DNA from: Escherichia phage I29
Sequence record: ON286975
Length of the DNA stretch: 64,000 bases
Direction: 5' to 3' (one strand)
The notes beneath the pieces were generated by a model. It did no database searches. It was not told where the DNA came from and saw only the letters and a program-made list of their open reading frames with translations. How positions within the stretch are numbered: the first letter of the stretch is position 1; the number at the start of each line of letters is the position of its first letter. Position numbers and translations under genes: made by a program. Positions 6,745 through 64,000 of this stretch are shown piece after piece.

Positions 6745-7722
6745 ATGAATCTTGAAAAATATTATACACCAGAAGAGTTAGAGCGCTTGCTCAAAAAATA
6801 TAGACGCAAACAGAATAACGCACGGAAACGAGATATAGAGTTCGACCTGTCATGGGAAGAATACCTCCTATTTGGTAAAAAACTTTTAGGAGATGGAGTA
6901 TGCGACTATACCCTTATACCTTTTGACATGCACACAGATGAAAACGGGCTGGGGAATCCTTTCTACCCATCTTTGGAGCGTATAGATGATGAAGGCCCTT
7001 ACGCAATTGACAATTGTTGTGTGGTAGGGTTGAGGTGCAATGCTCTGAAAGACTGTCTGGTAGATAAAAAGACTGCAATCCTGATTAAAGACGAAACTGA
7101 TCGAAAAATTGTCCAGCAGATGATGCTCCACCTGAGCGAAGAGCGTATGGAGAAATTGAAAGGTGATTATACTTTTGAAGATTTCATCTTGCAATATGGA
7201 ACGGAAGAGGATAAACTAGCACTATTTGACGAAGAGGAAGAAGATATGTCACCAATGCAGGACTTTAAAAATTTCATGGCTGATCGTGCAGCCAACAAAC
7301 ACATTTCAGACATCGTGAACGAGACTGTGACAGAAGAAGTTGAAGAACAGAACTCTGAAGAGGAAAAAGAGCCTCAGGAGGTCGAAGAGGGGATTGCAGA
7401 AGAGGTTCCTGCACTGCCTGATGATGTTGAGATTGCTAAGGCTTACACTTTCTATTGTCAAACGTTCTACGATGCAGGTATGAAAGTTGATCTGTCGTTC
7501 AGCCAATTTAAGAGTTCGTATATTCGCAAATGCTGTGCTTTAACTGGTGAACGTCTCGGAGCTGGACTTAAACCACTGTTGGTGACCGACTGGAATAAAG
7601 GTTTCACTAAAGGAAACTTTATGGTAGTATCTCCAATTATGGAGAAAGCTATGACAGATCTTATGAAGACCACCCGCATGACAATGACCGAGTTGGCAGG
7701 TATTTTCAAACACGTTAAATAA
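6745..7722 (+). CDS. protein with two degenerate HNH-like segments and an acidic linker
   Basis: ORF track starts at TTG 6679; ATG 6745 lies downstream of the putative promoter; segments CDY..PSLERID..NCC..CNALK and CALTGERL..DWNKG..KGN flank an E/D-rich linker; no canonical catalytic His seen. Confidence 0.45.
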   Translation: MNLEKYYTPEELERLLKKYRRKQNNARKRDIEFDLSWEEYLLFGKKLLGDGVCDYTLIPFDMHTDENGLGNPFYPSLERIDDEGPYAIDNCCVVGLRCNALKDCLVDKKTAILIKDETDRKIVQQMMLHLSEERMEKLKGDYTFEDFILQYGTEEDKLALFDEEEEDMSPMQDFKNFMADRAANKHISDIVNETVTEEVEEQNSEEEKEPQEVEEGIAEEVPALPDDVEIAKAYTFYCQTFYDAGMKVDLSFSQFKSSYIRKCCALTGERLGAGLKPLLVTDWNKGFTKGNFMVVSPIMEKAMTDLMKTTRMTMTELAGIFKHVK

Positions 7723-60518: not shown

Positions 60519-60595
60519 TGGTCTCCACGGAGTGATTCGAACACTCGACCTCCTGATCCCAAATCAGGCGCTCTACCAAGCTGAGCTACGCGGAG
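60519..60595 (-). tRNA. tRNA-Pro (anticodon UGG)
   Basis: Cloverleaf read by eye on minus strand: 7-bp acceptor, T-loop TTCGAAT, anticodon loop UUUGGGA, CCA encoded. Confidence 0.8.
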
Positions 60596-60606
60596 TATTT
60601 ATTATT

Positions 60607-60681
60607 TGGTGGCCCTGGGTGGAATTGAACCACCGTCTGGCGATTATGAGTCGCTTGCTTGAACCTTCCAGCTACAGGGCC
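60607..60681 (-). tRNA. tRNA-Met (anticodon CAU; elongator or Ile2 not resolved)
   Basis: Cloverleaf on minus strand; anticodon loop CUCAUAA; CCA encoded. Confidence 0.75.
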
Positions 60682-60682
60682 A

Positions 60683-60758
60683 TGGTGCTGATGGCAGGAC
60701 TTGAACCTGCAACCTATTGATTACAAATCAATTGCACTACCAATTGTGCTACATCAGC
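60683..60758 (-). tRNA. tRNA-Thr (anticodon UGU)
   Basis: Cloverleaf on minus strand; D-stem GCAC/GTGC, anticodon loop UUUGUAA; CCA encoded. Confidence 0.8.
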
Positions 60759-60763
60759 AAAAA

Positions 60764-60862
60764 GGTGCTAGGTGATGGAATCGAACCACCTATGTATTCA
60801 ACGACTACCTCGTCTATTTTCAGGATTAAAAATCCTCGCCCTTGCCAAAGGGCTTACCTAGC
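60764..60862 (-). tRNA. atypical tRNA-like gene (possible anticodon UUU, not resolved)
   Basis: Good acceptor stem, D arm and T arm, but 30-nt insert between anticodon arm and T arm; CCA not encoded. Confidence 0.4.
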
Positions 60863-60960
60863 TCAGTATGTTGACCATGTTGCTAGTCGGCGATGACGAC
60901 TGTAACATTTGATAATCCGGTTCTGCTTCCGGCTTTCGCTTAATTACAAGGTCAACAATA

Positions 60961-61051
60961 TGGCTGAGGGTAATGGAATCGAACCATCATCAAGTCATCC
61001 TCAACGGGACGGTTTTCAAGACCGCTTGAGCACCATTGCTCCCTACCCTCA
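60961..61051 (-). tRNA. tRNA-Ser (anticodon UGA)
   Basis: Class II cloverleaf with long variable arm; anticodon loop CUUGAAA; G73 and CCA encoded. Confidence 0.75.
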
Positions 61052-61165
61052 TTTATAAACAATACTGATAATGACACTGATTTTCGAGCAGTTAGTGACT
61101 AGTATAAACGACGATAAATATCAATGCCATTATCTGTATGATTTATGCATTTAAAACTATAAATT

Positions 61166-61252
61166 TGGTGGGGAGTGGTGGAGTCGAACCACCCGAGTCG
61201 CAATGACAATAGATTTACAGTCTACACCGCTACCCCTACGGGATAACTCCCC
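61166..61252 (-). tRNA. tRNA-Tyr (anticodon GUA)
   Basis: Class II cloverleaf; anticodon loop CUGUAAA; 15-nt variable arm; CCA encoded. Confidence 0.8.
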
Positions 61253-61256
61253 AATT

Positions 61257-61331
61257 TGGCACCCCGTACTGGACTCGAACCAGTGTCAACGGCTTAGAAG
61301 GCCGCTGCTTTATCCACTAAGCTAACAGGGC
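61257..61331 (-). tRNA. tRNA-Arg (anticodon UCU)
   Basis: Cloverleaf on minus strand; anticodon loop CUUCUAA; acceptor stem with two G-U pairs; CCA encoded. Confidence 0.75.
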
Positions 61332-61427: not shown

Positions 61428-61766
61428 TTAGCTATTGCTAACAGGTTGTATTTCTGTGGTAAATGGCATAAAAGGTGCTGGTTTTTCAGCCTCTTCTACT
61501 ACCACCTCTTCCTCTTCACCAAACATCTCATCATATTCTTCCTGCATTCGGTCTGCCTTATCAAGAACATACTCTGCAATGCTTTGACGAATATTTTGTT
61601 TGGTTTTCGGGTCCAACATCAGCTCTCTTAAAACTTTGTGAGCTTCTGGAACCATCGCTATAAAAGATTCCTTCATATCAAGGATGTTCTTCTCTAGCTG
61701 AATGGCGTTGGACTCCTCTTTCAGAGGTCTGCCTCTACGGCGACGCTTTTTAGTTGTATCCGCCAT
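61428..61766 (-). CDS. small basic protein with AT-hook-like motif
   Basis: ATG 61766 with GGAGG SD (ORF-track start 61886 lies in non-coding DNA); N-terminal KKRRRRGRPLK; acidic C-terminus. Confidence 0.5.
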   Translation of the reverse strand: MADTTKKRRRRGRPLKEESNAIQLEKNILDMKESFIAMVPEAHKVLRELMLDPKTKQNIRQSIAEYVLDKADRMQEEYDEMFGEEEEVVVEEAEKPAPFMPFTTEIQPVSNS

Positions 61767-61777
61767 GTTTCCTCCAT

Positions 61778-62429: not shown

Positions 62430-62639
62430 TCAACAGATTCCGGCCTTATCCTTCCTGTCTGCGTATTCTTTAATCGCAACCTCATCTGCATTAGTGACCA
62501 GGTCTTCAAAGTAACTCTCAAGCTCCTCGTCAATGTCAGGAGACCAGCTCTTTTTCCTGTCAGTGTGAATTGCAGACTTGTTGAACTTATTACAGTTCTT
62601 TGCTACCGGGTTGTTCATTAAGCGCTCCTCAGCGTTCAT
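62430..62639 (-). CDS. hypothetical protein, 69 aa
   Basis: ORF overlapping upstream stop. Confidence 0.4.
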   Translation of the reverse strand: MNAEERLMNNPVAKNCNKFNKSAIHTDRKKSWSPDIDEELESYFEDLVTNADEVAIKEYADRKDKAGIC

Positions 62640-63207
62640 AGTAAATCTTATTTAACATTACCTCATCCTTTGCAGAAAGGATATCAAGATATGCATCACC
62701 AAATCTTCCTGCAACAACCTCTGCATGATACATCACTTCGTTAACATCGTCAAGAGTGATAACCGGATGACCATATCTTTCTGAATATTGTCTCAGGGTG
62801 CGATGTAACGAGTCGTCATCATATGCAGACTTTTTAATATCACAAACACGACGAATAGCCTTGATGTCGAAAAAACCTGTGCGATACCACCCAAGAAAAA
62901 GGTTTCGTGCAGTGTCAACATCTACATTGATACCATCAAGAACCTTATCTACAAGATAGCTGTCATCCTTTGGACCAGCGTCCTTAGTGCGAATGTAGTT
63001 GCCATCTTTTCCAGGCGACATCTCCTTCTCATCCCCAACCTGCATGCCATCATTTGGCGGTGTTAGCCACTTATCCGGATGCTTACGATCACGAGCGTTA
63101 GAATGATTACGCTGGAAACCGGGCTTCCACTTGAAAGTTTTCTCCATCTGTTCTTCATTCTGATAACGTTTTGCAATCTTTTCACGGTCATCTTTGCGTG
63201 AACCCAT
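62629..63207 (-). CDS. hypothetical protein, 192 aa
   Basis: ATG 63207 preceded by GAGGAGG; preceded by ~350-nt GC-rich leader. Confidence 0.5.
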   Translation of the reverse strand: MGSRKDDREKIAKRYQNEEQMEKTFKWKPGFQRNHSNARDRKHPDKWLTPPNDGMQVGDEKEMSPGKDGNYIRTKDAGPKDDSYLVDKVLDGINVDVDTARNLFLGWYRTGFFDIKAIRRVCDIKKSAYDDDSLHRTLRQYSERYGHPVITLDDVNEVMYHAEVVAGRFGDAYLDILSAKDEVMLNKIYYER

Positions 63208-63711
63208 AGCTGCCTCCTCTTCAAGTTATAGAAAAACTAACTGTATCGCTTTGTAACGAGCTTTTCTATCAAACTGGTGCGATTGCATTACCTGGTATAG
63301 TTTATATAGCTGTGGAGCGATTTAGGGGCCTTCTTGTCAGTTTCCACACATAAACTTCATCCAAGCTCGCGCGGGAGACTCTCAACCGACTCCTTACGGC
63401 GCTGGCAAGCTTTCGTCGGTGGTCCACATCAGTGCTCGGCCTTTGGCCTGCGCTATCGCTTCGCTCCCACACATGTTAACAGACCTGTATGTATGAACTT
63501 CTGTTATTGTGTGCACCAAAGAGGCCCGGCATCTCGCCCCTCGTAGGCGAGTGCCAATGAAGGGCCGACACTGCCCATAGTAAGTAATAAATTTAAAACA
63601 TGGTACTTAGGATCTAGTATATTCTACATAAGTTAAGTATATGTACTTAGTACCATAAGTACTAGATCTTTTATTTTTTTATTATTTAGTTATTTTAGTT
63701 ATATTCTTTAT

Positions 63712-63794
63712 GTGTCCGTATCACGGACAGCTAGTGTCCGTATTACGGGCAGATGTGTCCGCGTGACGGACAGTAGTGTCCGTATCACGGACAG
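63712..63794. repeat. four tandem 19-bp palindromic sites GTGTCCGTATCACGGACAG
   Basis: Units at 63712, 63734, 63755, 63776, spaced 21-22 bp; each a 7-3-7 dyad TGTCCGT-N3-ACGGACA; units 1 and 4 identical; degenerate fifth copy near 63801. Confidence 0.85.
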
Positions 63795-64000
63795 TTAATA
63801 GTATCCGTTCCATGGCGAACATAAAACATACGAATCCTTATAGTACAGATATTTAAGTTTTTACTGGTCTAACCAGTTGTTGACATCCGAATAACTTCTT
63901 CTGGTGGCAAAACTTTGGAAAATGTGCATCTTTTACCTCTCCCTTGTGTGGATGTTTCAACCACTCCTGCACATTCTAAAGTTTTAACGCACGCTGCTGC

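Follow-up and report, generated by a model that had tools for sequence, protein, structure and literature searches.

This work concerns a stretch of 64,000 nucleotides from the genome of Escherichia phage I29 (sequence record ON286975), here called the window, and in particular a locus at its right-hand edge in which four copies of a 19-bp dyad lie between an AT-rich tract and a gene homologous to ORF79 of the coliphage rV5. We consider this locus a candidate iteron-type replication origin of the genus Vequintavirus, composed of predicted sites for ORF79 dimers and an unwinding tract; from sequence comparison, we put the probability of this reading at about 0.55. That the array is a predicted ORF79 binding site, whatever its purpose, we hold to be highly probable. 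At this locus, the identity to 118 records of rV5-like coliphages, the members of this genus, is 97-99.7%, and the rV5 genome (DQ832317, 137,947 bp) served as the reference for whole-genome checks. For the rV5-like group, whose origin is unmapped, the locus is the best candidate yet.

The dyad array and the AT-rich tract

The array (63712-63794; core TGTCCGT-N3-ACGGACA) consists of four head-to-tail sites at 63712-63730, 63734-63752, 63755-63773 and 63776-63794, with start-to-start spacings of 22, 21 and 21 bp. Tandem Repeats Finder describes it as a repeat of period 21 with 4.0 copies and a score of 110. A first-pass annotation of the window, made from the letters alone, had listed four phased copies of one palindromic sequence. 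The number and the phasing are as described there, but only copies 1 and 4 are identical: both read GTGTCCGTATCACGGACAG, a perfect dyad of the 7-3-7 type. One arm mismatch is present in copy 2 (GTGTCCGTATTACGGGCAG, with the right arm …ACGGGCA) and one in copy 3 (GTGTCCGCGTGACGGACAG, beginning TGTCCGC GTG…), and the central triplets of the sites are ATC, ATT and GTG. Within a site, the centres of the two half-sites lie 10 bp apart, and neighbouring sites are separated, centre to centre, by two helical turns. Four phased direct repeats of 19 bp lie within the norm for iteron-type origins, which is about 17-22 bp, and the units are semi-palindromic direct repeats.

The array is non-random. On base composition, about 0.008 sites with at most one mismatch are expected per 64 kb, and four are seen within 82 bp; the same criterion finds no further site in the window outside the array. 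The first-pass annotation had proposed a genome-wide search for other copies of the dyad. In the complete 137,947-bp rV5 genome, no site with at most one mismatch occurs elsewhere, and thus none upstream of other genes: the dyad is found solely at 65152-65232, and the next-best match has two mismatches and looks like chance. Because the site is unique in the rV5 genome, a dispersed regulon is excluded. Some GenBank records carry the array as a 'repeat_region', and our literature searches found no published work on the dyad sequence or on Vequintavirus iterons.

We measured variability as the fraction of variable alignment columns among eight Vequintavirus genomes of the ORF79 type. At 7%, the array varies least of all segments of the locus, followed by the AT-rich tract (11.5%), the coding DNA of ORF79 (15%) and a GC-rich element described below (21%). 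The copy-specific defects are conserved too, and in phage Aya a symmetric double change turns copy 3 into a perfect dyad. The spacer that separates the array from the stop codon of ORF79 (63795-63868) is the least conserved part of the locus, with 31% variable columns, and its first ~25 bp are hypervariable among phages that are otherwise 95-99% identical. In the window, this part of the spacer resembles a degenerate fifth copy (about 63799-63819), and in rV5 and ECP26 the same stretch holds a different, 5-3-5 dyad (CTCTG-TTC-CAGAG).

Directly abutting the array on the other side is the AT-rich tract (63576-63711), which we propose to be a DNA-unwinding element on the basis of its composition. 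The first-pass annotation gave its length as about 150 bp at about 80% A+T; this composition holds for 136 bp (80.1%), while the longer interval 63560-63711 has 75%. Against a window average of 55.6% A+T, the tract is the most AT-rich 136-bp stretch in the window, and when the whole rV5 genome is scanned in windows of 150 bp, it is again the most AT-rich (77%, against a mean of 56%). The short dyads that the first-pass annotation saw in the tract are indeed present, as two interleaved pairs of inverted repeats: ATGGTACTTAG/CTTAGTACCAT at 63600-63610/63646-63656 and GATCTAGTA/TACTAGATC at 63611-63619/63660-63668. GATC sites lie at 63611 and 63665. The single-strand fold of the tract is unremarkable (z = -0.85).

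In contrast to the tract, the array, as a single strand, folds far better than shuffled controls (z about -7 for either strand); a 7-bp stem can form in each unit, and the array lies in what would be the 3' untranslated region of ORF79. These properties would suit a set of RNA or single-stranded DNA hairpins that acts as a terminator or as a signal for transcript stabilisation or processing. We consider such a role extremely improbable. Good folding follows automatically from palindromes and so is not independent evidence. No intrinsic terminator was detected at the array, the AT-rich tract or the GC-rich element, and no U-tract follows the array on either strand. The defect in copy 2 is a wobble on the plus strand only and that in copy 3 on the minus strand only, so that neither strand keeps four stems. 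Moreover, the strict phasing of 21-22 bp and the replacement of the sites together with a DNA-binding protein (see below) point to recognition of the duplex. Scans of the array and the GC-rich element against Rfam, by gathering threshold and by E-value, found no family; a match to rli43 (22 bits, against a gathering score of 100) was rejected as hairpin noise.

ORF79 and the joint replacement of protein and sites

According to the first-pass annotation, no cognate repressor or initiator was evident in the window. This was not borne out, since the window does contain the 3' end of the rV5 ORF79 homologue (the last 43 codons and the stop codon, 63869-64000, minus strand), the rest of which lies beyond the window edge. 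The array thus occupies the 3' flank of this gene, 75 bp from its stop codon. In annotated relatives, the full-length gene, on the minus strand, has 351 nt and encodes 116 amino acids. An AlphaFold2 model of the protein (predicted local distance difference test score, pLDDT, 79) consists of a single winged-helix domain. Its best match in the PDB is 4ro3, both by sequence (phmmer 3e-6, ~28% identity) and by fold (Foldseek 2e-5, template modelling score 0.67), and the next Foldseek matches are the N-terminal domains of the RepA_N initiators 4pql, 4pt7 and 5kbj, the last of which is a Rep-DNA complex. Comparison with the PHROG families assigns ORF79 to PHROG 12838 ('replication initiation protein', 5e-80), with weak matches to three further initiator families. 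Judged by the predicted fold, ORF79 corresponds to the DNA-binding N-terminal domain of a RepA_N-type initiator, occurring here as a protein of its own. Most records label it 'putative transcriptional regulator', and some, by pipeline, 'replication initiation protein'; we found no record or paper that connects the repeat array with ORF79.

The structure 4ro3 is the N-terminal domain of RepA from the phage-inducible chromosomal island-like element (PLE), a satellite of Vibrio cholerae (PMC7145576). The initiator function of PLE RepA is proven: the protein binds semi-palindromic iterons located in non-coding DNA, and PLE replication requires them (Barth et al. 2020, PMC7145576). Both proteins come from virus-related elements of Gammaproteobacteria. 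The two systems nevertheless differ in several respects: ORF79 lacks the C-terminal domain present in PLE RepA and gives no match to the Pfam RepA_N model; PLE is a satellite dependent on helper functions, whereas the present phage is large and virulent and encodes its own replisome; the repeat sequence and its central spacer are unlike those of the rV5 array; and the proteins are only ~28% identical.

The strongest support here for reading the repeats as the predicted cognate sites of ORF79, and the locus as a single functional unit, comes from the joint replacement of protein and repeats at a fixed position. By scanning for a conserved 19-mer of the GC-rich element, we recovered a divergent Vequintavirus-like contig (IMGVR_UViG_3300010279_000001, 137,418 bp; L245 in our collection) in which the order of the locus is kept at 1650-2800: phosphoesterase gene, winged-helix gene, repeats, T-rich tract, GC-rich element and ORF77. 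The winged-helix protein of this contig has 143 amino acids, is 28% identical to ORF79 (BLASTP 6e-7) and matches the same initiator-like families. The repeats next to it are different dyads, TCTGATRCA-AATA-TGYATCAGA, in four to five copies at a spacing of 21-33 bp. An initiator-like gene lies 75 bp from the array in the rV5-like phages, and in the divergent contig protein and repeats have been replaced together. The same contig also carries an additional insert of ~150 bp, with inverted repeats of its own, between the T-rich tract and the repeats.

Other searches for relatives of the protein or of the sites yielded little. A word-indexed search for remote ORF79 homologues returned near-identical Vequintavirus proteins only, and a degenerate-pattern scan of IMG/VR for ORF79 relatives gave no match. 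A HMMER scan of 1.84 billion representatives gave 8 matches, of which 3 are plausible relatives of the HTH_36/DUF6945 type on short contigs without informative repeats. In scans of genome contigs and viral contigs for the dyad, nearly all matches were single chance palindromes. The sole real array found there (7162-7289 of JAUXVE010000140.1, a metagenome-assembled genome of Rubrivivax sp.; L119 in our collection) comprises four copies of a dyad close to that of rV5, GTCCGT-N3-ACGGAC. It lies inside the 3' end of an open reading frame (ORF) of 214 amino acids that matches PHROG 270, 'replication initiation protein', weakly; its neighbours are AlpA-like and Toprim-like genes that belong to an integrative element. 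Homology of this ORF to ORF79 is not demonstrable (hhalign probability 6%), and we treat it as an analogy only, which may reflect convergence or coincidence.

The first-pass annotation left the choice between an operator array and origin iterons open. Its underlying idea, phased sites for a dimeric protein, is strongly favoured by the present data; between the two functions, the iteron/origin reading fits better. As an operator or roadblock, the array would be the target of ORF79 acting as a repressor, either for autoregulation or to insulate the early ORF81-79 operon from the downstream late genes. The array lies at the border between the small, promoter-proximal ORF81-79 operon and the long late-gene run. 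The next gene on the minus strand, ORF77 (62629-63207), follows about 500 bp downstream, and the genes past the array on the same strand are those for tRNAs, lysis, terminase and structural proteins. This position, the label given to ORF79 in most records and the presence of winged-helix repressors among its fold matches are what an operator would lead one to expect. In addition, no intrinsic terminator follows ORF79, so that other insulation could be needed, and joint replacement of protein and sites suits any cognate pair.

We nevertheless regard the operator as unlikely. A promoter scan that covered the sigma-70 consensus only found no sigma-70-like promoter overlapping or near the sites (0 in 63150-64000, against 1.9 expected by chance) and none in the equivalent region of phage isim. 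The sites lie 3' of ORF79, away from its own promoter, which holds no array half-site, and no further copy stands upstream of any rV5 gene. That no promoter- or terminator-like signal overlaps the locus argues against an operator. Furthermore, the closest characterised relatives of ORF79 are initiators rather than repressors, and an operator leaves the 80% A+T tract without a role.

Several points also weigh against the proposed origin. Some concern the protein. The Pfam scores of ORF79 fall just below the cut-offs for HTH_36 (24.5 bits, cut-off 25) and DUF6945 (27.4, cut-off 28), and the Pfam models RepA_N (PF06970) and Phage_rep_O give no match to it at E up to 1. After the RepA_N domains, its fold matches are generic winged-helix regulators, namely MarR, CodY and LexA. 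ORF79 thus agrees with the N-terminal winged-helix type of the RepA_N family by fold, but not by Pfam model or domain composition: it consists of the DNA-binding domain only, and RepA_N initiators are thought to recruit the replication machinery through their C-terminal domain. Others concern the DNA. The centres of the iterons (given above) are not the poly-A tract typical of RepA_N, and neither DnaA boxes (TTWTNCACA) nor the consensus for integration host factor (IHF; WATCAANNNNTTR) has a match in or near the locus. Such host factor sites are common at iteron origins, although not universal.

The genomic setting adds further points of this kind. The global minimum of the cumulative GC skew of rV5 lies at about 66 kb, ~1 kb from the array and the AT-rich tract, but the direction of transcription switches at the same place (ORF81/ORF82), and for this reason we do not count the minimum as independent evidence for an origin. 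Kropinski et al. tried skew analysis of rV5 to find the origin and saw only transcription-linked changes, so that the origin was not defined (PMC3606486). Both ORF79 and the array occur in a single genus only: in the sister genera Mydovirus, Seunavirus and Justusliebigvirus, the phosphoesterase gene stands in another gene order, and neither is present. Consequently, the locus cannot be the ancestral origin of the subfamily.

The GC-rich element and the 13-kb plasmids

On the side of the AT-rich tract opposite the array is a conserved GC-rich element (63330-63575; 56% G+C), which is built of hairpin modules, several of them followed by a (C)CCACACA motif. Its variable sites are distributed evenly over the three codon positions (10/10/9), in contrast to those of ORF79 (2/4/13). 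We therefore rejected the ORFs inside it, including 'ORF 78' of rV5, as coding sequences. Besides this lack of bias between codon positions, the ORF on the plus strand is interrupted by stop codons in several genomes, and the element is non-coding.

Parts of the element are ~85% identical to an unannotated region of circular E. coli plasmids of ~13 kb. Between phage and plasmid, one 6-bp helix differs by three compensatory pairs, and the 24-nt loop that it encloses is invariant; as to which strand is the functional one, one wobble favours each strand. The element may serve as a priming signal or as a packaging signal. The plasmids that share it are NZ_CP020521.1 (L009, 13,689 bp) and also L008, L015, L016, L017, L252 and L257. 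Their genes include those for a major capsid protein, a tape-measure protein and homologues of rV5 ORF48 (50% identity), ORF56 (45%) and ORF49, the rV5-like proteins being neck and baseplate proteins. They have no terminase or portal gene, and a Rep-like winged-helix gene lies near their iterons. The plasmids look like undescribed plasmid-borne satellites of rV5-type phages, as judged from their gene content; literature searches found no publication on these plasmids or on satellites of rV5.

In the plasmids, the shared element is followed by an AT-rich segment of the GATCTATT type, with 13-mer-like repeats, and then by 4-6 phased iterons, an arrangement that matches the order in the phage. 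The iteron sequence differs from plasmid to plasmid, and the homology of the Rep-like protein to ORF79 is not significant; with the phage locus, the plasmids share only the GC-rich element, and neither the dyads nor ORF79. The shared order supports an origin-type module and at the same time raises the alternative of a helper packaging signal. As a separate observation, rV5 has a non-coding, ORF-free region of 2.6 kb (104.0-106.6 kb) outside the window, in which 49 bp (105688-105736) are 88% identical to part of the plasmid Rep-like gene. This match suggests past recombination between phage and satellite.

The packaging alternative takes the array, the AT-rich tract and the GC-rich element together as the pac recognition region from which headful packaging would begin, ORF79 being a small-terminase-like or accessory DNA-recognition protein. 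Vequintavirus genomes are reported to be circularly permuted and headful-packaged, with the position of pac unmapped (PMC8407724, PMC13211470). A pac site must therefore exist somewhere; the same reports mean that the locus is not a fixed terminal-repeat boundary, an explanation that the first-pass annotation had kept in reserve and that we discard. The large terminase gene is ~4.5 kb from the array on the same strand, and the GC-rich element is the main non-coding DNA held in common with plasmids that carry capsid and tail genes but no terminase, as would be expected of the packaging signal of a helper. On the other hand, the plasmids carry their own, plasmid-specific iterons at the equivalent place, so that the array itself is not the shared signal, and ORF79 resembles initiators, not small terminases. 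For the locus as a whole, we judge a pac function to be quite improbable.

A joint reading of phage and plasmids, which we offer tentatively, is that of a modular, cis-acting cassette linking Vequintavirus phages to the ~13-kb satellites, in which ORF79 would be a minimal initiator. Such a cassette would combine the structured GC-rich element, the unwinding tract and an exchangeable pair of iterons and winged-helix protein. The satellites could then exploit their helper through the shared structured element, whether in packaging or in priming by the replisome of the phage. An ORF79 that consists of the N-terminal domain only might open the origin for a self-loading primase-helicase of the T7 type, which would make a recruitment domain unnecessary.

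A few observations on the surrounding genes and records were made in passing. An ORF of 113 amino acids (61431-61769, minus strand), situated between the locus and the genes for tRNAs, lysis and terminase, belongs to PHROG 3330 (function not assigned); its N-terminus is strongly basic (KKRRRRGRP) and its C-terminus acidic. A small terminase is not annotated in rV5-like phages, and this ORF may be a candidate. The tRNA cluster (60522-61331, minus strand) includes an unusually long or interrupted tRNA-like gene at 60766-60862 (97 nt, 35.5 bits only), which is labelled tRNA-Lys in some records and 'tRNA-OTHER' in one and is unannotated in rV5. Finally, 18 GenBank records named 'Campylobacter phage' with the host Campylobacter jejuni (for example, MG065635.1 and MG065653.1) are 97-99% identical to the rV5-like coliphages in this region; they are probably mislabelled or contaminant assemblies.

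Relation to known origins and significance

The proposed origin would work as follows. ORF79 is probably made early, given the sigma-70-type promoter that the rV5 annotation assigns to it (a TTGACA-18-TATTTT match). Its dimers would load side by side on the four sites, on one face of the helix, and the resulting complex would deform the DNA and promote opening of the adjacent 136-bp tract. The opened tract could then become the start point for the phage's own replication proteins; rV5 carries a primase-helicase of the T7 type and a polymerase (ORF230 and ORF228).

Several known origins offer comparisons. In the origin of phage lambda, four dyad iterons of roughly 19 bp lie beside an AT-rich region inside gene O; dimers of the O protein bind them through the N-terminal domain and form a wrapped nucleoprotein complex, and the C-terminal domain recruits P-DnaB. 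The rV5-like locus has four 19-bp dyad sites beside an AT-rich tract as well, but ORF79 has no Phage_rep_O match and the array is 75 bp downstream of the gene, not inside it. The staphylococcal RepA_N initiators, RepA of pSK41 and pTZ2162 (4pql, 4pt7, 5kbj), bind dyad-containing iterons through a winged-helix dimer of the N-terminal domain, and these iterons, too, are direct repeats with internal inverted repeats. In these plasmids, unlike at the present locus, the rep gene itself contains the origin, with iterons that converge on a poly-A tract; the proteins have a host-specific C-terminal domain and function in Gram-positive hosts, and the sequence similarity to ORF79 is marginal (E about 0.8). 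The oriV of IncQ plasmids (RSF1010) comprises iterons, an AT-rich segment and hairpin elements (ssiA/ssiB) that are priming signals. The tripartite order of array, AT-rich tract and GC-rich hairpin element is similar both here and in the 13-kb plasmids; there is, however, no sequence or protein homology to IncQ, and the GC-rich element here may be a packaging signal instead. Taking these comparisons together, the locus is best explained as an iteron-type origin of known architecture with a RepA_N-like putative binding protein that has the N-terminal domain only.

The rV5-like phages rank among the coliphages most frequently isolated, and their use in biocontrol and therapy has been widely proposed; the origin candidate, if true, would be useful for phage engineering and for origin-based vectors. 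It would also help to explain how replication begins in a large virulent phage that has a T7-type replisome. RepA_N-like initiators, which in Gram-negative hosts have been characterised only for the PLE satellite of the cholera bacterium, would extend to a virulent coliphage. The link to the plasmids, if confirmed, would point to a possible new helper-satellite system in E. coli, and this may outweigh the array itself in importance.

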